DNA from: a virus
Taxonomy: Duplodnaviria; Caudoviricetes
Length of the DNA stretch: 64,000 bases
IMG/VR virus record: IMGVR_UViG_3300017912_003441
Coordinates: 32,001 to 96,000 of that record
Direction: 5' to 3' (one strand)
The position numbers were made by a program, and so were the translations under genes. Below the pieces are notes generated by a model. That model saw only the letters and a list, made by a program, of their open reading frames with translations. It did not search any database and was not told the DNA's origin. Of the stretch, positions 6,665-40,433 are shown one piece after another (within the stretch, counting starts at the first letter, position 1; each line of letters starts with the position of its first letter).

Positions 6665-9114
6665 TGAGCGCTGAGGAAAAATGTCCATTAAGTGTACCAG
6701 TACCGATTACTCTATCGGTAAATACATCCGGGTCGATACCTTCTCCTGTGAACAATGTACACAGTTTATCTGCCACTCATAGCGGGTTCACTCGTATAAG
6801 TGAATTTACCTTTACATCTAATCTCACAGGTTCAACTTCGTTTAATGAACTAGTCGATCCGCCGATTTCTACTACTGTTGCAGTTTGGGACTTTGGTGAT
6901 GGTAACACTCTAAGCGCACGAAACACTCCAACTACAACCCATACATACAAAGTCCCGGGTATTTATACTGTAGCAGTTTATTACTATGATATTAACGGAA
7001 CAGCGTACTTTAACACCCTCACTGAAACTGTATCAGTATACAACTATGTAGAAACGAACATACAATTATCGAACACCGAAGTAGATAGTGTTTCTGGTAA
7101 GATGTTCAGAGCTGGTAGTACAGATGACCCTGGACAAAAATTTCCAACTCTTGTAACTGCCTCTTGGCAAGATGTATCAACAACAGACTCTATTACAGGG
7201 ACAGAAGATTTTACTCTTTATGTTACAGCGAGTGGTAGTAAATCAAAACCATACGACACTAAAAACAAGTATGCTCATTTATTACCTTACAATGCTTTTT
7301 ATGATCGCTCAGAAGAAGACAAAAATGTACGCATTGATCATACAGGAGTAAACATAAAAGTAAATAAACGCAATTACGCAATTAACCCAAAAGATAATAC
7401 TATTAAGTTAGTTGCGGATAGTTTTATTCCAGAATTAAGCGCATTAGGCATAAAAACCTACATGCTAGGCGCCACAAATAATCCACAGACCGCTGTTAAC
7501 AGTTATAATACTTCTGTATCTGGTTTAACAGGATCCGAAACATTATCAGGTAAAAGTGTAATATTAAGTTATTATGACGATACCCCAAATATAGATCCCG
7601 GAGTCCAATTAATTGTAAAGCTCGATCTTAGTAAACATCGTCTCAAAAATTTCTATGTAGATAATATAGAAACAGATATTAACGGTAGTGGGCAAAACTT
7701 TCTCGAAACTGGAGGTGGTGCTCTTAAAAACTACGACGGTATATTAGTCAAAGTCACAAAACCGGTACCGGATTTTACCGACTTGTTTTCTTTTACGTCT
7801 ACTGGAATGAAGCAAATGTCAGCGATTAATTATAAAAGACAAGGAGATAAGTTTCAGGTTTTTATAGGGGTACAAGACAAAGACAAAAATATATTAAAAA
7901 ACTACCCGATATTTTTAAGAGACACTACTGGGAATATCGGAACATTGTCTGCTACTGATAATACTTTTTATATTAATTGGGCTAGTGGTGGAGATTTACA
8001 CACTACTAATGTAAGCAGTGTAAGTACTAATAAGTTCCCATATAACAGCACTACAGGTAACACAGAGTTAAGTAGCTTTTTATATCTGAATATCGACCCA
8101 TTAAGCGCTGGAACATGGACATTAAATGTTTCTGCAAACATACAATCTCTAAGCGCTAACACGAGCGCGCTTTCTGGCTTTGGTAATGTTGGCGGAAACG
8201 TCGGGGAAAATACACAACATTATACCGGTTCGTTTACATTTACAGTTTACCCGTCAACTAACGATGTTGAGTTCTATTTACAAAACGAAGATATAGATTA
8301 CTCTCAGGTAATTAAAAGTTATAGATTCCAATCATTCATGCATGAGTATGATAATCTATTTGACGGTGTGTTTACGTCGTTTGTAGGAGAAGCAAGCTCA
8401 AGTCCAACTACATTTGGTAAGACTATTTTCTCTAAAATAGCTAACTTTGTTACTAATCATAACGATATTGATTTATGTAAAATAGATCAAATACAATCCT
8501 TTTATGATTTACTGAATGAAGATGTAGATATCATTTTACCTGAACCTCCCTCTGAACTAAAAAGACTGTATGATACGTTTAGTATAAAAGTATCTAAATT
8601 GTTAGGTAACTATGAACAATTTTCAGAAAGCTTAAACTCGAATTTTTATACTTCTTCTGCAGACGGTGTAAATGTAGATTTTAACAACCCAATTACTGCT
8701 TCTACATATACAGTTACAGCGTATACAAATTTTGTAGCACGACAAAAATTTAATAACGAATTTTTAATAATTAAACCTCAAAAAGTTGCTACTAAAAATG
8801 TTGATGGTACATCTTCAGGGGAATCTACAGAGTACGAACTTTCAGCTTATAACATATATAGTAATTGGGGCTGGCCGCTAGACACTACTGTGTCTGGTGC
8901 AAGTGGGTTGTCTGCAATGTATGATTTTTATCCATATACAGTTACTGATCCGACTTCAGCAATTAAAAATTTACAAGCAAATTTAATTGATTACAACAAC
9001 CCATATACAACAATAACAAGAACAGCTTCATCTTTAAGCGGTGATTGGACTAATGATGATGGTATAATGTATAAGAATTTAGACTATCAAATACGGAAGG
9101 GCCTTAGCATATGA
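6664..9114 (+). CDS. baseplate/virion structural protein with PKD domain
   Basis: WDFGDG...THTYKVPGIYTV PKD signature; structural operon. Confidence 0.7.
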   Translation: MSAEEKCPLSVPVPITLSVNTSGSIPSPVNNVHSLSATHSGFTRISEFTFTSNLTGSTSFNELVDPPISTTVAVWDFGDGNTLSARNTPTTTHTYKVPGIYTVAVYYYDINGTAYFNTLTETVSVYNYVETNIQLSNTEVDSVSGKMFRAGSTDDPGQKFPTLVTASWQDVSTTDSITGTEDFTLYVTASGSKSKPYDTKNKYAHLLPYNAFYDRSEEDKNVRIDHTGVNIKVNKRNYAINPKDNTIKLVADSFIPELSALGIKTYMLGATNNPQTAVNSYNTSVSGLTGSETLSGKSVILSYYDDTPNIDPGVQLIVKLDLSKHRLKNFYVDNIETDINGSGQNFLETGGGALKNYDGILVKVTKPVPDFTDLFSFTSTGMKQMSAINYKRQGDKFQVFIGVQDKDKNILKNYPIFLRDTTGNIGTLSATDNTFYINWASGGDLHTTNVSSVSTNKFPYNSTTGNTELSSFLYLNIDPLSAGTWTLNVSANIQSLSANTSALSGFGNVGGNVGENTQHYTGSFTFTVYPSTNDVEFYLQNEDIDYSQVIKSYRFQSFMHEYDNLFDGVFTSFVGEASSSPTTFGKTIFSKIANFVTNHNDIDLCKIDQIQSFYDLLNEDVDIILPEPPSELKRLYDTFSIKVSKLLGNYEQFSESLNSNFYTSSADGVNVDFNNPITASTYTVTAYTNFVARQKFNNEFLIIKPQKVATKNVDGTSSGESTEYELSAYNIYSNWGWPLDTTVSGASGLSAMYDFYPYTVTDPTSAIKNLQANLIDYNNPYTTITRTASSLSGDWTNDDGIMYKNLDYQIRKGLSI

Positions 9115-11411
9115 CAATAGATTTAAATACAACTAATCCATTATCATTTGTAGAATGGAAGCAATATTATAATGACAATCGCAACGCGACTGAATTATCT
9201 ATATTATATAATAATTATTTGGTTGACTGGAAAGAACAAAAACAAGCCAATACAGATACAAAAAACAACTACACAAGGTCTATTTATACCCAGTTTCTTA
9301 AAAATTTAACATTAGATACTTTAGATCACGAAGTTGGTAGATTTTTAAATGAAATAGATACTGATGATATATATGAATTAGAATTAGGAGTACATTATTT
9401 TGTTAATATAATTCGTAATCAGTTATTAAGTGTAAAAGAGTTAAGAGATGAAGCTACTTTTAGTACAACTAAAAATAAACTAAAAACATCTAAAGCAGGT
9501 GTAAAACAATACTTAAAGAATTATATTTCTAAGCTTTTAAGTAATAAAGATTTTATAACTGAAAATACTGATACTTCAACTGCAGATATAAATGTTGAAA
9601 AAATCGCTAATGCAATTTCTATAGATATAGACCATTACGTATCTGACGAATTCATATATAACATACATCCGATTGATAAAGATTTAGTCGACAATATTGA
9701 GAACAGAGTTTTAAGAGAGTCTAAATCAAAAAACATATATCAATTAATTACTATTAATAAAAATGGTAAACAGTATAAAGTTGAAACAAATAATATTTCT
9801 ACCCCGAGTGCTTTATTAGGTATTAATGACCCGTTTTCTAATTATGAAAGACTACCTAATAGATATTTTCGTAATGAAATAAAAACATTAGATAATTTAA
9901 AATTTATTCTTGAACGGGATCTAATTAAAAAATATTTAGCTAATGACATATATCGGCTGTCCGGAGATAAAAAGAACGCTAGTGTAGAAGTTTTATACGA
10001 TAATGTTAACCCTACAAACAATCTGACACAAAGATATGGCCCTAATTTATTTGGCGGTATTGTAAATGAGAAAAATACGAATATATTTCCTTTTCAGCTT
10101 TCATATAAAAATACTGGTACAAATAATTTTAATTCTTTTGGTCTAACTTTTAATATTAATTTATCTGCGTTCAACGGAAGAGAGTATTTGATTCCAAACC
10201 CACACCAATATGAACCAGGGTTAAAAGCAGTTGGTTATATTAAAGACCATAAAGGCAATATTTTACGCAACATAAAAGTTAAACAACGTACTCCATTAAT
10301 TTTTAAATCTAAAACAAACACATTTAAAAATAATGATAGAACGAATTCTGTTAATTTTTATAATAATAAAATTGTACGCAATTATGGTTATCAAAGCCAA
10401 GAAAACAGTTTAGAATATACTCCTGCAGGTATTAACAAGAGAGAAGATAATATTAGTTTTTGGGAAGATGCAGAAGGTCATATCGACTGGAGAAATACAG
10501 ATACTTATCCAGTAAGTGTTTTAAATATATTTCCGGAAAGTAAACGCTTAGATGATTTACTTATCACAAACAAGACAGGTGTTAAATTACGGAGCGATGT
10601 GTATGGTAATGAGTTTTACTTTATTAAGTCGATATACCCAAAGAGAAAAGCAGGAACATCATATATAAGTGAAGAGTCATCTAGCACAGATACAAGCTGT
10701 ACAACAGCAGCAGAGTTTTATGACGGTCTTTATTTTAATCCGCTTTTATCTGCTATATCCGCAGCTCAAGCATCTAGTCCTACAGCATATACAGGGTTGA
10801 CTGGAATATATGATACCTTCATTGTTAATGATAATACTTTATGTAGTCTAGGCAATATCGGTGGGTCTGGAAGTTCATTCTTCGCGCCATTATCAACATA
10901 TAATTGTACAGATCTACATACAATAGCTCTATCCTGCGGTTCTGTATCTGCTGTCTCAGCGGTTGATGGAGGTCCGTTTAAAAGTCACCCAGGTCGCTCG
11001 GATTTATTAATTGAGAATTATTTTAAAGATATAACTATACCATACTACACAATTGACTCAACTGCAATTTATTCTAATACAGTTACTACGTATGAGTCAG
11101 CAAGTCTTAACCAACCAACTGCAACAAAGTATCAGTTATTTGAACAGCAATTTGAGGAGTTTGGAGAAATATTTGTACGTAATAACTTTTCTCAAGAAGT
11201 ATTAACTTTAAAACAAGCCATGTCTGCTGTGTTTAACAAACATTCTGCTGCGACGAAAGGCAGGATTTACACATCTAATAAAATACAAGATTTTGAGATT
11301 ATCGAAGATTCAATATACATACAAACTAACGTAGAGACATTAACTGAAAAATACACATTTGATGACGGTACATTTAAAAACGCCGCAGGGTCGAAATCTA
11401 TAATAACTTAG
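9111..11411 (+). CDS. putative virion structural protein
   Basis: 766-aa ORF coupled to its neighbours in the baseplate operon. Confidence 0.6.
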   Translation: MTIDLNTTNPLSFVEWKQYYNDNRNATELSILYNNYLVDWKEQKQANTDTKNNYTRSIYTQFLKNLTLDTLDHEVGRFLNEIDTDDIYELELGVHYFVNIIRNQLLSVKELRDEATFSTTKNKLKTSKAGVKQYLKNYISKLLSNKDFITENTDTSTADINVEKIANAISIDIDHYVSDEFIYNIHPIDKDLVDNIENRVLRESKSKNIYQLITINKNGKQYKVETNNISTPSALLGINDPFSNYERLPNRYFRNEIKTLDNLKFILERDLIKKYLANDIYRLSGDKKNASVEVLYDNVNPTNNLTQRYGPNLFGGIVNEKNTNIFPFQLSYKNTGTNNFNSFGLTFNINLSAFNGREYLIPNPHQYEPGLKAVGYIKDHKGNILRNIKVKQRTPLIFKSKTNTFKNNDRTNSVNFYNNKIVRNYGYQSQENSLEYTPAGINKREDNISFWEDAEGHIDWRNTDTYPVSVLNIFPESKRLDDLLITNKTGVKLRSDVYGNEFYFIKSIYPKRKAGTSYISEESSSTDTSCTTAAEFYDGLYFNPLLSAISAAQASSPTAYTGLTGIYDTFIVNDNTLCSLGNIGGSGSSFFAPLSTYNCTDLHTIALSCGSVSAVSAVDGGPFKSHPGRSDLLIENYFKDITIPYYTIDSTAIYSNTVTTYESASLNQPTATKYQLFEQQFEEFGEIFVRNNFSQEVLTLKQAMSAVFNKHSAATKGRIYTSNKIQDFEIIEDSIYIQTNVETLTEKYTFDDGTFKNAAGSKSIIT

Positions 11412-31886: not shown

Positions 31887-32168
31887 TTAGATTTGTTTCT
31901 CGAGCTTAGCGATCAATTGCTTGACGCTAACTGTAGGGTTGGTTAGATTATAGGTGAGAATATTATAAAGCTGATTGCACTCACCTTTAGTTAGTTTAAT
32001 TTCACTAGGAAGTTTTTCCCATTCTTCGAACTTAAGTTCAACTGGTTCAGCAATACCATGCACATAAACTTTTTTCTTTGCGAGAGGTCCTCTTGGATCT
32101 CTGCGGCGGTCGAGAGTATTATCGTATTCTAATTTCATATTAGTCTGCAATTCCGTAATGTTGCTCAA
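31887..32168 (-). CDS. hypothetical protein
   Basis: ORF track. Confidence 0.5.
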   Translation of the reverse strand: MSNITELQTNMKLEYDNTLDRRRDPRGPLAKKKVYVHGIAEPVELKFEEWEKLPSEIKLTKGECNQLYNILTYNLTNPTVSVKQLIAKLEKQI

Positions 32169-35547: not shown

Positions 35548-35889
35548 GTGACTAATTTGAAGAAATTAGAAAAGTTGACTAGACAGCTGGAGCTGCATGA
35601 AAACGACTTTATTAATTATGTTATTGAAGCGGATTATTCCATCGTGCTGGTATCCGAAGCAGGCAGAATTAAGTGGTGCAATGAATTCTTTCAACAGTCA
35701 TTTAAAGTGGACAATACTGAAATCCACAACAAGGGTCTAAAAAGTATTATTGGTGTAGATATTTCTAAATGGTCTAGAAAGACATTCACAATAGATATCA
35801 ATGGTGCCACTCACACAGTAAAGATAAGAGATCTAAATAGAAATGGCAAATTAATACATAAAAAAGTAACCCTTGTACCGCATGAGTAA
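35548..35889 (+). CDS. stand-alone PAS-like domain protein
   Basis: IVLVSEAGRIKWCNEFF resembles the PAS N-terminal motif; CATAAATA upstream. Confidence 0.55.
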   Translation: MTNLKKLEKLTRQLELHENDFINYVIEADYSIVLVSEAGRIKWCNEFFQQSFKVDNTEIHNKGLKSIIGVDISKWSRKTFTIDINGATHTVKIRDLNRNGKLIHKKVTLVPHE

Positions 35890-36112
35890 TGATCCAAATA
35901 AATTAGAAAATGGTTCTTGGGCTGAGTGGAGACGATTAGTACTCAGCGAACTAAGCCGTTTAAACTCAGATATAGAAGAGCTTCAAAAGAACCAAAAGAA
36001 AATAGAAGTGCAATTAGCCACTCTAAGTACTAAAATAATTATGTATGGTGCTATTGGGGCTTCTGCAATCGGTTTCGCAACTTCATTAATATCATCTTAC
36101 CTTAGTAAGTGA
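35882..36112 (+). CDS. coiled-coil + C-terminal TM protein (XhlA/holin-like architecture)
   Basis: Heptad repeat followed by a hydrophobic helix. Confidence 0.5.
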   Translation: MSNDPNKLENGSWAEWRRLVLSELSRLNSDIEELQKNQKKIEVQLATLSTKIIMYGAIGASAIGFATSLISSYLSK

Positions 36113-36402
36113 ACAATAAAGGGTATACGCTTTTAGAACTTCTACTTTGTATTACTATTATTCTAATACTTGTAGGTAATTTAGCAGGTAATTTTTACGC
36201 TGCTAAAGAAGTCGCTAAGGAAGTCCGTTGTAAGACTTATAGAAAGCAAATGGAACTATTCTATTCTATGCCAGAGTTCGATTATACTCAGGACTATGGA
36301 GAGTATTCTGATTATACATCAGTTATAGACGAAATGGTGCTAATGTATAATGAATGTTATAGATGTCACCCAAGTGTAAGTAACAATAACTGGAATCCCT
36401 AA
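36109..36402 (+). CDS. prepilin-type N-methylation-motif protein with CxxCH
   Basis: KG|YTLLE + TM helix; AKEVAKEVRC; CYRCH. Confidence 0.75.
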   Translation: MNNKGYTLLELLLCITIILILVGNLAGNFYAAKEVAKEVRCKTYRKQMELFYSMPEFDYTQDYGEYSDYTSVIDEMVLMYNECYRCHPSVSNNNWNP

Positions 36403-36410
36403 ATAATTAT

Positions 36411-37991
36411 ATGGATGAGAGTTTGCACCAATTAGCTGCGACAGGGAACTTAAGATGTATAAAAAAGGCGTTAGAAACTCCTAAATTATTTTATTCTACT
36501 GATGAAAATAACGGATGGACTCCACTTCACTACGCGTCTAATAAAAGTAAAGTAAAAATAGTAAGCGTTATTCTTGAAGCTGGAGTAGATCCGAACACTC
36601 CAAGTAAACCTGTAAGCGTTAGACAGAGTAGTTGGAACTTAGCGTTGATGGAGGACAAAGAATGCCCAATAGTTACTGCTATGGATGTAGCTGATGGGCC
36701 TAATCGTCATAAAATTGTAGGTTCATTGAGAGACGCAGGAGGTATGTTTTATAATAAAGAACTTACTTTACATCAATGCGTACAGTTAGAAGATATAGAT
36801 GAAATAGAAGGTCTACTAGAAGATGATAGTTTAAAAATTAATGCAAGAGACCATAGAGGTTGGATGGCTTTACATTACGCTGTAGATATTAACAATATTA
36901 ATATAGTTAAGCTTTTATTAGACGCTAAAGCCAACATAAACGGATCAACTTATAATCCTAATGATCAATTCCATTATAATGCTTGGGAAATAGCTAATGC
37001 TAATAATAGTAATGTAATGCTAGACTACTTAGTTAATAGAGGAGCATGTAAACACCCTAGTAGGGATAATCCTAAATACAAACCAAGAGTCAATAATCAA
37101 GTTATTGACAATAAAGCTGCCGATGAAGCTTTAGGTCGCATAAGAAAAGAACGCAGAGAACAAGATGAAGATAGAAAAGCATTACAAGAACCTGATACAT
37201 TATTAGGCAAACTGTTTGAATCAAAAGAGAAAAAAGAGAAAAGAGAAGCAGTAAAAAGTAGAATAGCTGCTGAACAAGCTAAAGCAAGAAGAGAAGCAGC
37301 AGAGAAAATACAAAAAGAAGAAGAAAATAAAAAGAAGCAAAGAGTTATAAAATGGAAGTGGGGACAAGATCCATTCAAGTTAAAAGGAGAAGGAATCCAA
37401 TACGATTCTCCGTGTCGAGCTCATACCTACTTCATGGATATAGTAGGTTATTCTAAAAAGACTACAGCTGAACAAAAGAAAGTAACTAATGAGTTAATTG
37501 ATTATGTTAAAAGCACACAAGGTTATCAACAAGCGGATCGACAAGGCAAACTAATTATATTACCTACTGGGGATGGTATGGCGTTAGTATTTTTTAATAG
37601 CGTTAATGCTGCATTTAAGTGTATGGTTGATGTAGGTCGTATGACTTATAAACATTCTAGTATCGGCTTAAGGAATGGATTGTATTCTGGCCCAGTAGTA
37701 CCTGTAAAAGATATAAATGATAATCCTAACGTTAGCGGTACAGGTATTAACATGGCTCAACGTTGCATGGATGCAGGAGATAATGATCACTTATTAATAT
37801 CAAACGATGTACATCAGTATGTATGTGAAATGGATATACCTGGTTTACAGTTTGATGATTGGGGCCCTGTTATAGTTAAACACGGGACTACTGTTCATAT
37901 GTGGACAGCATATGGTAATAATTTTGGTAGGAGAGAATTTCCTCATTGGAGAGGAACAAAAAAAGCAGAATTTAAAACAGAAGAAGAATGA
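36411..37991 (+). CDS. ankyrin-repeat / coiled-coil / class III nucleotide cyclase fusion
   Basis: GWTPLHYA and GWMALHYA ankyrins; FMDIVGYS, TGDG, LRNGLYSGPV, INMAQR. Confidence 0.88.
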   Translation: MDESLHQLAATGNLRCIKKALETPKLFYSTDENNGWTPLHYASNKSKVKIVSVILEAGVDPNTPSKPVSVRQSSWNLALMEDKECPIVTAMDVADGPNRHKIVGSLRDAGGMFYNKELTLHQCVQLEDIDEIEGLLEDDSLKINARDHRGWMALHYAVDINNINIVKLLLDAKANINGSTYNPNDQFHYNAWEIANANNSNVMLDYLVNRGACKHPSRDNPKYKPRVNNQVIDNKAADEALGRIRKERREQDEDRKALQEPDTLLGKLFESKEKKEKREAVKSRIAAEQAKARREAAEKIQKEEENKKKQRVIKWKWGQDPFKLKGEGIQYDSPCRAHTYFMDIVGYSKKTTAEQKKVTNELIDYVKSTQGYQQADRQGKLIILPTGDGMALVFFNSVNAAFKCMVDVGRMTYKHSSIGLRNGLYSGPVVPVKDINDNPNVSGTGINMAQRCMDAGDNDHLLISNDVHQYVCEMDIPGLQFDDWGPVIVKHGTTVHMWTAYGNNFGRREFPHWRGTKKAEFKTEEE

Positions 37992-38134
37992 AACAACAAA
38001 CCAAAGAATTAATATTAGTAGGTATAGGTATCCTATTTATACTCGCTGTGTGTCTGAGTTCATGTGACAACACTGCAAATATAGCTGTACAAAAGCAAGA
38101 CTTTCCTACACGGATAGGGTCAGGTATAAGATAA
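37988..38134 (+). CDS. 48-aa putative lipoprotein, not in ORF track
   Basis: MKQQTKELILVGIGILFILAVCLSSC lipobox; overlaps both neighbours. Confidence 0.55.
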   Translation: MKQQTKELILVGIGILFILAVCLSSCDNTANIAVQKQDFPTRIGSGIR

Positions 38135-38385
38135 TGGATATTGATAGAGAAATAAAATTTTTAGAAAGAGGTACATTTTGGACTCCTGTTGTAGGTCTTA
38201 TTATATGCTTCTTTCTTCTTTTTCTTTCTACTGGTTGTAGTGGTACTTGGGTATGGCAGGAAGATTACCCTAAACATAGAACAATGTCATTTAAATGCCC
38301 GAGATGGAATTATGATCAAGCATATGATAGACTACATCACGCATGGTCAACTAGACAACACGAACCAATAAAAATAAAAAAATGA
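38134..38385 (+). CDS. putative lipoprotein
   Basis: Hydrophobic segment followed by LSTGC. Confidence 0.5.
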   Translation: MDIDREIKFLERGTFWTPVVGLIICFFLLFLSTGCSGTWVWQEDYPKHRTMSFKCPRWNYDQAYDRLHHAWSTRQHEPIKIKK

Positions 38386-38735
38386 AGTTCCATGCTTACA
38401 TAAAAGAAATAAGATTAAAATACTTCAAAGACTTAACTAAGTTTAGTAAGATACTTGGAGTAGAAAAGACAATGTGGCGTAAAGTTGAAAGAGGTATCAA
38501 CCCACCTCCCAAACGCTCATTACTTAAACGATTTGCTAGCTTGACTCATATGCTAAGTTACGAAGAAGCTCAATTGCATGAGCTAGCAAGAAGATGGGAA
38601 CCTTCGCCTGATACTAACACTAACAATCATATATTATTATCTGATGCTTCTAAGGCAGAATGGAGACAGGCTTTATTAGAAGAAAATACTCCAGACTACG
38701 AGCATAAATTTTGGGGAAAAAAAAGCCCCCGTTAG
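38382..38735 (+). CDS. XRE-like HTH protein
   Basis: IKEIR...FSKILGVEKTMWRKVERGINPPP. Confidence 0.7.
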   Translation: MKFHAYIKEIRLKYFKDLTKFSKILGVEKTMWRKVERGINPPPKRSLLKRFASLTHMLSYEEAQLHELARRWEPSPDTNTNNHILLSDASKAEWRQALLEENTPDYEHKFWGKKSPR

Positions 38736-38768: not shown

Positions 38769-39215
38769 TTAGGTACCGACACCAACGTTCCCATCTGCAG
38801 AACTACCTACACCGACATTACCATCAGTGCCTGTACTTCCAATACCTACGTTAGCTTCAGGCGCAGAACCGCCTACGTTACCAGATGATGTACCAACTCC
38901 GATGTTTCCATCTGTAGCTGTACTTCCAATTCCTACATTTCCTTCACTCATAGAAGTATTTATAGGCTGAGACTGAATTAAATTAACTAATGTCGCAGCT
39001 GGTATTGTTACAGTAGGTGCAGAACTCCCGATCCCAATATTCCCATCTGCGTTTGTACCAATACCAATATTACCAAGCGCTGGCGCCGGTTCTTCTAACA
39101 ACCATTCATCTTCTTCTTCTAATGCGTCTACACGCGCGTCTAAATCAGCAATTGCACTTTGTAAGTCAGCAATAACTGTCCTAATTGATCTTCTTCGTCT
39201 ACGGGGAATACTCAT
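38769..39215 (-). CDS. basic N-terminus / coiled-coil / GNVGIG-repeat protein
   Basis: RRRRR, heptads, about 8 [GA]N[VI]G[IV]G repeats; TATAAATA upstream. Confidence 0.65.
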   Translation of the reverse strand: MSIPRRRRRSIRTVIADLQSAIADLDARVDALEEEDEWLLEEPAPALGNIGIGTNADGNIGIGSSAPTVTIPAATLVNLIQSQPINTSMSEGNVGIGSTATDGNIGVGTSSGNVGGSAPEANVGIGSTGTDGNVGVGSSADGNVGVGT

Positions 39216-39279: not shown

Positions 39280-39885
39280 CTATGCGCTCACTGTAGATGT
39301 TGTAGAGGTACCATGAGGTACAATAGAAGCATTGAGAATGTCTAATACTTTCATCAAACCTTCAGGTGGTCCGTCGTCTCTAGCTTCAACATGTACATCG
39401 TATTTCGCTGAATTATCAGTCTTACGAGTACTTTCTGATTTACTTTGACTTGATACTGATGCCTTCATCTCGACACTTACTGGTGAATACCATGCACTGT
39501 ATGAAACATCTGTACTTACATTAGCGTTGGTTGACGAGCTATCAGTTTGCACTGAGCTTGACTTTACTTCCATTGTAAAATCTACAGTCGCCTTTTTAAC
39601 AGAAAGATTAGGAACATTAAGAATAGATAATAACGGTACTGATAATTTATCATCTACTAATTGGGTCGAACCGTCACTGTTTGTAACTGGAGCTTTAAAA
39701 CCAAAATCAACAGAACGAGCCGAGACTGCTCCTCCACTTGAACTCGGCTCTGATAAACCTACATCGTTAATAAACTGTTGAGTGTGTGTTGATAGTTTGC
39801 CTTGCGCTTTCGCTGCAGCTAACAAGGGTTGTCCTATCAAATCGGACATTGGAAGTCCTTTAAATTGATCTGCGATACCTGCCAT
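39280..39885 (-). CDS. DUF2589 family protein
   Basis: FKGLPMSDLIGQPLLAAAKAQ, VPLLSILNVPNL, VDFTMEVK, PPEGL.KVLDIL. Confidence 0.85.
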   Translation of the reverse strand: MAGIADQFKGLPMSDLIGQPLLAAAKAQGKLSTHTQQFINDVGLSEPSSSGGAVSARSVDFGFKAPVTNSDGSTQLVDDKLSVPLLSILNVPNLSVKKATVDFTMEVKSSSVQTDSSSTNANVSTDVSYSAWYSPVSVEMKASVSSQSKSESTRKTDNSAKYDVHVEARDDGPPEGLMKVLDILNASIVPHGTSTTSTVSA

Positions 39886-39935: not shown

Positions 39936-40433
39936 CTAAGATGGTAGTTGTTTAATCATCTCTTGTCGTATGCGAGCTATACCTTCAGGTGGTTCTGTAG
40001 AGTCAAGTTTCATTCGGACTTTAGCCATTCGCTTCCCATTAACAGAAGTAACTGCAGCACTAATATCATCATTGTCAATATCTTCTAAGTGACCTAGCTC
40101 AACTTCAAAATCAATCTCTAACTCTTTAATATTGAGATGATTACCATGAGTTAATGTAATAAGAGGTACATCTACTTCTACAGGATCTCCATCGTGAGTC
40201 GGTAGACTTAACCTAAACAAATTAGGATGACCATCTTTATCAAAGAATCTTTCTAGAAAATGCTCAACAACCTGCTCGTCTACTTTACGCTGCGCCATAA
40301 TAGTCGAGCGATAGATAGAACGTACTAACTGATTAAAAGTCTTTGCAGCTTTAGATTTAGTTTGCTTAGGTTTTGTTCCTCCAAAACCAACACTGCTTTC
40401 GTCATCATCTTTACCGTATGAATATTTTGGCAC
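39936..40433 (-). CDS. DUF2589 family protein (second type)
   Basis: VPLITL..L.IKELEIDFEV...EPPEGIARI. Confidence 0.75.
   Translation of the reverse strand: MPKYSYGKDDDESSVGFGGTKPKQTKSKAAKTFNQLVRSIYRSTIMAQRKVDEQVVEHFLERFFDKDGHPNLFRLSLPTHDGDPVEVDVPLITLTHGNHLNIKELEIDFEVELGHLEDIDNDDISAAVTSVNGKRMAKVRMKLDSTEPPEGIARIRQEMIKQLPS

Follow-up and report, generated by a model that had tools for sequence, protein, structure and literature searches.

Why would a large marine phage carry a gene that joins ankyrin repeats to a nucleotide cyclase, and what might the encoded protein do in an infected cell? The question was raised by an open reading frame (ORF) at positions 36411 to 37991 (+ strand, stop codon included) of a 64,000-nucleotide stretch of viral DNA, referred to here as the window, which corresponds to positions 32,001 to 96,000 of IMG/VR record IMGVR_UViG_3300017912_003441. 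An initial annotation, made from the sequence alone, described the 526-amino-acid product (P0001) as a phage-encoded ankyrin-class III nucleotide cyclase of unclear base specificity. The source is a 119,263-bp IMG/VR viral contig with a CheckV completeness of 59%, which also encodes a gp6-like baseplate wedge protein, tail-fiber-like genes and four tRNAs. These features confirmed that the gene is phage encoded; the carrier is an uncultured large marine T4-like phage, with a gp6 that has only ∼24% identity to cyanomyophage gp6. The analyses described here favor a class III (IIIc-like) cyclase that is soluble, competent for catalysis and joined by a charged helical spacer to an ankyrin protein-binding module, a reading that we consider probable though well short of certain. 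That the protein would be an active cyclase is judged, from its conserved residues and predicted structure, to be very likely.

Domain architecture and fold

The proposed order of ankyrin repeats, linker and class III cyclase was upheld by Pfam matches, profile searches of the PDB and fold comparisons. Sequence, profile and fold matches placed the cyclase-homology domain at residues 331 to 510 (positions 37401 to 37940, + strand). A phmmer search of the PDB with the C-terminal 221 amino acids detected the mycobacterial cyclase Rv1900c (1ybt) at an E value of 1.9e-4 and 3mr7 at 5.8e-4; the motifs for metal binding and for the transition state were in register. A subfamily profile constructed from the cyclase domain and 19 short relatives matched 3mr7 (E = 4e-12), 1ybt (E = 7e-10) and Ma1120 (E = 3e-9) and, further down, rhodopsin-guanylyl cyclases (E = 4e-8) and the ANP receptor (E = 1e-6). 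In a full-length AlphaFold2 model generated from a 74-sequence alignment (mean predicted local distance difference test score [pLDDT], 81), an alpha/beta domain was well predicted at residues 335 to 505, and Foldseek aligned the model with the cyclase-homology domain of Rv1900c (1ybt) at a template modeling score of 0.81. When folded alone, the cyclase domain had a pLDDT of 85.5, with domain values of ∼90 to 96, and a predicted template modeling score (pTM) of 0.81. The closest structure to this isolated-domain model was Ma1120 (Z score of 20.2; root mean square deviation [rmsd] of 2.0 Å over 158 amino acids), followed by Rv1900c (Z score of 19.7), Rv1264 (19.6) and a fungal rhodopsin-guanylyl cyclase (19.5). 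The structural search returned 239 chains with Z scores of at least 8, and the best 50 entries (Z scores of at least 17.3) were all adenylyl or guanylyl cyclases. On the basis of sequence and modeled fold, assignment to class III is secure.

The mycobacterial class IIIc cyclases Ma1120 (4wp9/5d0e), Rv1900c/LipJ (1ybt/1ybu) and Rv1264 (1y10/1y11) thus have the same fold (rmsd of 2.0 to 3.6 Å over 158 to 166 amino acids) at ∼20% identity to the phage protein. They differ in the regulatory partner, which is a lipase-like or pH-sensing domain in the mycobacterial enzymes and a phage-encoded ankyrin domain on a charged helix in the protein described here.

The ankyrin-repeat domain occupies residues 1 to 215 (positions 36411 to 37055, + strand), with approximately five repeats according to Pfam and AlphaFold2. 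Five Pfam Ank families exceeded their cut-offs (E values of 1e-8 to 1e-17), with the matches to Ank_2 (E = 2.7e-17) and Ank (E = 6.9e-15) among them and residues 34 to 64 and 120 to 213 covered. The model contains about five helix-pair repeats (pLDDT of ∼80 to 94), and Foldseek also matched it to ankyrin and DARPin structures; the repeats reported initially were confirmed. A conserved beta-hairpin or loop insert with a PMDVxxGPxR motif interrupts the domain at residues ∼63 to 98, and nine residues (G35, W36, H40, D92, N144, R146, D147, G150 and H155) were invariant in the 74-sequence alignment. The PHROGs matches to the protein were all to ankyrin-repeat families of unknown function, and no PHROGs family matched the cyclase domain. 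An N-terminal capsid-targeting or cleavage signal in the style of T4 internal proteins, sought by eye, was unsupported, as the N terminus belongs to the first ankyrin repeat.

Composition and the AlphaFold2 model defined a charged linker at residues 216 to 330 (positions 37056 to 37400, + strand), in which helices at residues 235 to 258 and 272 to 309 are flanked by disordered segments at residues 220 to 235 and 310 to 327. Half of the residues between 230 and 330 (50%) are charged. In the best register, hydrophobic occupancy of the heptad a and d positions reached only 0.18 in the long helix, compared with 0.43 in the short helix, and 12 of 34 i/i+4 pairs were of opposite charge. Because of this high charge, poor a/d occupancy and recurrence of opposite charges, the linker looks more like an ER/K-type single alpha-helix than a classical coiled coil; hence, the charged helix of the initial annotation is confirmed but its coiled-coil label is not. 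Across the family, the length (89 to 109 amino acids) and charged composition of the linker are kept but not its sequence (37% identity). A weak match of the charged helix to the PADLOC JetC model was rejected as compositional. The maximum Kyte-Doolittle hydropathy of the whole protein was 1.34, with no hydrophobic or transmembrane segment and no signal-like N terminus, and the protein is predicted to be soluble and cytoplasmic.

Active site and base-selecting residues

Four catalytic motifs were located on the + strand within the cyclase domain. Asp343 (positions 37437 to 37439), the first metal-binding Asp, lies in FMDIVGYS, is invariant among the 74 sequences and corresponds to the Asp of DIVG in 1ybt. 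The second motif, LPTGDG, contains Leu384-Pro-Thr-Gly-Asp388 (positions 37560 to 37574), with both Leu384 and the second metal Asp, Asp388, being invariant. Asn440, Asn447 and Arg451, the last two within INMAQR, were identified from the family alignment (positions 37728 to 37763), and the invariant Lys490 occurs in VKHG (positions 37878 to 37880), at what we take to be the site where class III cyclases have their triphosphate-binding Lys. An Asn/Arg pair of the Asn447/Arg451 type provides the transition-state residues of class III cyclases. Asp343, Leu384, Asp388, Asn440, Asn447 and Lys490 were invariant in both a 22-member and the 74-member alignment, and Arg451 was invariant in the smaller set and kept by at least 90% of the larger. 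Of 80 related viral loci, 79 contained all four motifs and one (L042) ended before VKHG; the N-x3-R motif was present in 80 of 80. Asp343 and Asp388 also aligned to the metal Asp residues of both 1ybt and 3mr7, and the two metal sites and the N-x3-R pair recognized initially were both confirmed.

Base selection in class III cyclases involves a residue pair that is Lys/Asp for ATP and of the Glu/Cys type for GTP (PMC4215837). This canonical pair is absent from the phage protein, which has Leu384 and Asn440 instead. In an ungapped alignment, Leu384 matched the Asn of "evNtaGDG" in 1ybt, four residues before Asp388, and Asn440 matched the Asp of "gtDvaG." The Leu noted initially at the Lys/Glu position was therefore correctly placed by alignment to Rv1900c, and the description of base specificity as unclear was apt, since the base cannot be read from a sequence in which the purine-selecting pair is missing. 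The mycobacterial class IIIc cyclases share the two metal Asp residues and the transition-state Asn position, and the Arg aligns in Rv1900c. Their base-selecting pairs are Lys/Asp in Ma1120 and Asn/Asp in Rv1900c, as against Leu/Asn here. Like the phage protein, Rv1900c is without the Lys, having Asn where Leu384 is found; as Rv1900c was deposited as an adenylyl cyclase, a Lys at this position is not obligatory in an enzyme of that designation.

The Leu/Asn pair extends well beyond phages. A HMMER scan with the cyclase domain recovered 3,506 cluster representatives at an E value of ≤1e-3 and 297 at ≤1e-30. Relatives without ankyrin repeats had 40 to 46% identity and were fused to arrays of tetratricopeptide repeats (TPRs) and/or Ser/Thr kinase domains. 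In species genomes these TPR- or kinase-fused proteins came almost entirely from Acidobacteriota and Verrucomicrobiota, among the matches listed. They carry the whole signature (F.DIVGYSK, [LI]PTGDGMALVF, N[VI][AS]G.GIN.AQR and VKHG; e.g., P0127-P0136 and P0148), including Leu or Ile in place of the Lys and Asn in place of the Asp. Because the pair is common to hundreds of such bacterial cyclases, it is a trait of the subfamily and no sign of a chemistry peculiar to the phage. The bacterial proteins differ in being cellular and in having a TPR or protein kinase partner, in contrast to the viral protein with its ankyrin partner. Five residues before the second Asp, many cellular members have Arg or Lys whereas the phage family has Ile, Val or Ala, and the ankyrin-cyclases are set apart from the bacterial subfamily by a long branch of 0.9 substitutions per site.

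Replacement of the Lys/Asp and Glu/Cys pairs by an invariant Leu384/Asn440 might also be expected of a pyrimidine or other non-canonical cyclase, producing cCMP, cUMP or another nucleotide for the phage's own signaling (for example, in Pycsar-like superinfection exclusion) or as a false signal to host defense. The PycC enzymes of Pycsar systems have the class III fold and likewise lack the classical purine-selecting pair, and published PycC clades have markedly dissimilar sets of residues around these positions, with differing triplets for CTP or UTP (PMC11224242). However, no PADLOC PycC hidden Markov model (HMM) matched the full-length protein at an E value of ≤1 or the isolated domain or four relatives at ≤10, and no PycC chain was detected at ≤1 in the search of the PDB with the subfamily profile. 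PycC entries were also absent from the Foldseek top list and from the 50 best structural entries, these being the lists inspected, and the latter were exclusively purine cyclases. PycC is found in defense islands with a transmembrane or TIR effector that binds cyclic nucleotide monophosphates (cNMPs); the protein described here is in a phage in which no such effector was found. The best score for the cNMP-binding family PF00027 in the source contig (∼59% complete) was 11.9 bits against a cut-off of 27.5, and two complete genomes and one partial genome of related phages contained no match over the cut-off. Furthermore, bacterial cyclases with the Leu/Asn pair number in the hundreds; these kinase and TPR fusions look like housekeeping enzymes and do not lie in defense-type operons. 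The sequence is silent on a pyrimidine product and nothing in it points to one, and we regard this explanation as improbable. With no PycC HMM match, no cNMP-binding effector and purine cyclases as the nearest folds, the link to Pycsar drawn in the initial annotation was not sustained. Its suggestions that the protein jams immunity or excludes competing phages are conjectural, the evidence weighing neither way.

Distribution, descent and selection

A protein search detected more than 100 clusters with the same architecture (510 to 545 amino acids) at 60 to 98% identity, mostly in marine metagenomes, the sources being pelagic data sets (Tara, ENA and JGI); in all, the family comprises several hundred protein clusters from such metagenomes. 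In IMG/VR, at least 117 contigs carried a full-length relative. These relatives included group 1 (54 to 89% identity; 511 to 542 amino acids) and group 2 (32 to 34% identity; 591 to 592 amino acids). One group 1 member is in a complete genome of 200,819 bp with terminal repeats and a gp6-like gene, a 134-kb group 2 contig likewise has a gp6-like baseplate gene, and the complete carrier genomes span 170 to 200 kb. No match was obtained in the phage GenBank collection by tblastn with the protein or by megablast with 15 kb of context, and the literature searched contained no description of a phage class III cyclase or of an ankyrin cyclase. Among the 600 matches listed from 185,579 species genomes, the fusion was found in only two short Verrucomicrobiota-binned contigs; the other 500-plus were cyclase only. 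These counts are lower bounds as regards weak matches but not as regards the best. The comparison of bacteria with phages that the initial annotation had called for set at least 117 viral contigs against these two and one contig of a metagenome-assembled genome (MAG).

The MAG contig (194 kb) encodes a 594-amino-acid ankyrin-cyclase between mreB and genes for FGE-sulfatase and HDOD proteins, near ligA, fliS and fliD, and this neighborhood is conserved in a second MAG; the DNA is 63% GC. The Verrucomicrobiota protein (P0120, L004, L089 and L090) has the same architecture and catalytic signature as the phage protein and is the sister of viral group 2 in the tree. It differs in having 32 to 33% identity to the phage protein, an extra N-terminal ankyrin block of ∼100 amino acids and a conserved bacterial neighborhood. 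Around this gene (L004, positions 8001 to 9785 and flanks; L089), an HDOD protein, FGE-sulfatase proteins and a pentapeptide-repeat ion-channel protein were observed, a setting that may hint at a cellular signaling context for the Verrucomicrobiota cyclase. Viral group 2 had a GC content of 36%, and the phage gene in the window one of 35%. The possibility that viral group 2 was misclassified Verrucomicrobiota DNA was rejected on the basis of the GC difference (36% versus 63%), the unshared flanks and the gp6-like gene.

A phylogeny built from 223 cyclase domains grouped all ankyrin-cyclases into one clade (support of 1.0) on a stem of 0.9 substitutions per site, apart from the cellular cyclases. 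With the cellular cyclases as the outgroup, group 1 separated from a lineage in which group 1b was the sister of viral group 2 plus the Verrucomicrobiota clade (supports of 0.885 to 1.0). As all ankyrin-cyclases form one clade, the tree indicates a single origin of the fusion, with diversification mainly in phages. By the same phylogeny, the bacterial lineage is a long-separated sister of a single phage group, and transfer may have gone in either direction.

Selection was estimated by the Nei-Gojobori method, with medians taken over unsaturated pairs. The dN/dS medians were 0.012 for the cyclase, 0.069 for the ankyrin domain and 0.159 for the linker; relative to the closest relative (L006), the values were 0.025, 0.06 and 0.079, respectively. 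The gene is under strong purifying selection and is not decaying. Constraint is strongest in the cyclase domain, which has a mean identity of 77% and keeps every catalytic residue. These observations tell against counter-defense by interference, in which the ankyrin domain would bind an immune or regulatory protein of the host, with the cyclase being secondary or serving only to perturb nucleotide signals locally. Ankyrin repeats are protein-binding modules, and those of the phage family have invariant surface motifs of their own and a low dN/dS, in keeping with interference; a weak repeat-level match to the candidate defense family PDC-M72A of PADLOC was also obtained but was rejected, as it spans only generic ankyrin repeats. 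We consider a primary role in interference to be as doubtful as a pyrimidine product.

A further explanation is that a verrucomicrobial host gene is being carried along without a phage-specific role. The chromosomal context of the 594-amino-acid version, flanked by ligA, mreB, fliS and fliD and syntenic in two MAGs, and the proximity of the cyclase domain to enzymes of Acidobacteriota and Verrucomicrobiota would be consistent with such an origin. Against this, the bacterial clade is nested within phage diversity, the fusion is rare among the listed matches from bacterial genomes and frequent in viral contigs, GC content is fully ameliorated on both sides and purifying selection is strong. This explanation is largely refuted and is given very little weight; contrary to one possibility raised in the initial annotation, the fusion is not a common host gene that was recently acquired and is decaying but a member of an old, phage-dominated clade with dN/dS values of 0.01 to 0.16. 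Ankyrin repeats are a characteristic feature of bacterial effectors that act on eukaryotes, and sponge-symbiont "ankyphages" carry ankyrin proteins, but an effector aimed at a grazer or at an animal host of the bacterium is the least plausible explanation of all, given the absence of a signal peptide or hydrophobic segment, the pelagic source and the rejection of the weak NCBIfam matches to Legionella Ank effectors, which were repeat level and far under the cut-off (38 versus 600 bits).

Genomic setting and proposed role

The ankyrin-cyclase gene sits in a 3.2-kb + strand island within a region that is otherwise on the minus strand. A TAAATA motif (positions 36400 to 36405, + strand) of the late-promoter type is located 5 nucleotides (nt) before the ATG and overlaps the TAA stop codon of the upstream ORF. 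Over the whole 119-kb contig, this motif was enriched 17.7-fold at positions −18 to −3 of ORF starts, with a peak in spacing at 5 nt (13 ORFs, including ORFs of the tail and baseplate region in the window), while its overall count in the window was not raised (105 observed versus 133 ± 12 expected). TAAATA is a real positional signal in the carrier phage. It was found at only 8 of 41 orthologous loci, so that the "own late-type TAAATA" of the initial annotation is reasonable for this phage, in position and enrichment, but is not conserved in orthologues. In 42 related loci (L002-L046), a second motif, GTGTAAT, is located 7 to 10 nt before ∼49 ORF starts in the vicinity of the cyclase gene, that of the cyclase orthologue included; it was not found before ORF starts in the window or the whole contig. 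The two motifs may mark distinct classes of promoter or of timing, or they may be signals particular to sub-lineages.

Directly 5′ of the cyclase gene, a 97-amino-acid ORF (positions 36109 to 36402, + strand) has a prepilin N-terminal cleavage/methylation motif (PF07963; 26.3 bits) and, by this match, encodes a pilin- or pseudopilin-like protein. A module of pilin-like gene and cyclase was rejected, since the former was beside the cyclase in only 1 of 43 loci, as a weak match. Two small overlapping ORFs of 83 and 117 amino acids lie 3′ of the cyclase gene (positions 38134 to 38385 and 38382 to 38735, + strand) and, by tblastn, adjoin it in 20 and 27, respectively, of 43 group 1 loci. Neither had a Pfam match; by eye, the former has a hydrophobic segment with a lipobox-like STGC at its end and the latter has a helix-turn-helix-like stretch. 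No functional partnership can be inferred from the neighboring genes. At the head of the + strand island, a gene (positions 35548 to 35889) with CATAAATA 7 bases before its GTG start gave a weak, sub-cut-off PAS-like match (PF21370, GdpP PAS; E = 0.006) and is kept only in relatives L025 and L028. These two relatives also have the adjacent DUF2589 paralogues located at positions 39280 to 39885 and 39936 to 40433 (− strand; E = 2e-37 and 4e-17). A 148-amino-acid ORF (positions 38769 to 39215, − strand) consists of a short N-terminal helix-like segment and then mostly glycine-rich GN[IV]G[IV]G repeats, with no Pfam match and no homologue among the related loci searched.

How might a soluble ankyrin-cyclase act during infection? 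The protein would homodimerize head to tail, as other class III cyclases do, forming two active sites that would convert a nucleoside triphosphate, most probably ATP, into a 3′,5′-cyclic nucleotide and pyrophosphate within the infected cell. ATP is favored because the nearest characterized folds are adenylyl cyclases and because Rv1900c is also without the Lys. If the enzyme is active, cAMP, by analogy with these neighbors, is given about an even chance of being the product; cGMP or a mixed purine output is possible at clearly lower weight, and so, to the same extent, is some other product. Expression is envisaged as late in the carrier phage. The ankyrin module may bind a host or phage protein and thereby switch or localize the enzyme. 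As no phage-encoded receptor was recognized in the contig or in the related genomes searched, the product would presumably act on cyclic-nucleotide receptors of the host, shifting host physiology to the advantage of the phage.

Several observations weigh against this proposal. The protein scored only 12.2 bits (E = 0.13) with PF00211, short of the gathering cut-off of 21.9. Since relatives at 40 to 46% identity reach 22.9 to 32 bits, over the cut-off, and the subfamily profile finds solved cyclases, the shortfall appears to reflect divergence and not a missing homology. The choice of cAMP is a guess from the nearest neighbors for an enzyme with neither a Lys/Asp nor a Glu/Cys pair, and no paper characterizing the Leu/Asn subfamily was found in the literature searched. 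The model is of a monomer, the head-to-tail dimer and coupling of the ankyrin and cyclase domains being presumed, and the pTM of the full-length model (0.43) leaves the inter-domain arrangement undefined. The host receptors for the product are likewise putative. Finally, most orthologues have GTGTAAT 7 to 10 nt before the ATG instead of TAAATA; hence, late timing may not be general.

What is new is the ankyrin domain as a partner, the fold being ordinary, the chemistry probably so and no new mechanism being shown. A bolder version, in which large aquatic phages of a widespread clade make a cyclic nucleotide other than cAMP or cGMP by means of an ankyrin-gated cyclase, or in which the ankyrin domain senses a host defense or regulatory protein to trigger the signal, is thought unlikely, if slightly less so than a pyrimidine cyclase or simple interference. 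If true, it would amount to a phage-owned second-messenger system for takeover or counter-defense and would provide a first functional handle on the Leu/Asn subfamily. Known phage strategies include destroying and sponging the cyclic-nucleotide signals of the host. A conserved enzyme with which a phage produces such a signal would work in the opposite sense. Assignment of a product to the phage enzyme would, furthermore, extend to a large bacterial subfamily whose base-selecting residues match those of no characterized enzyme.

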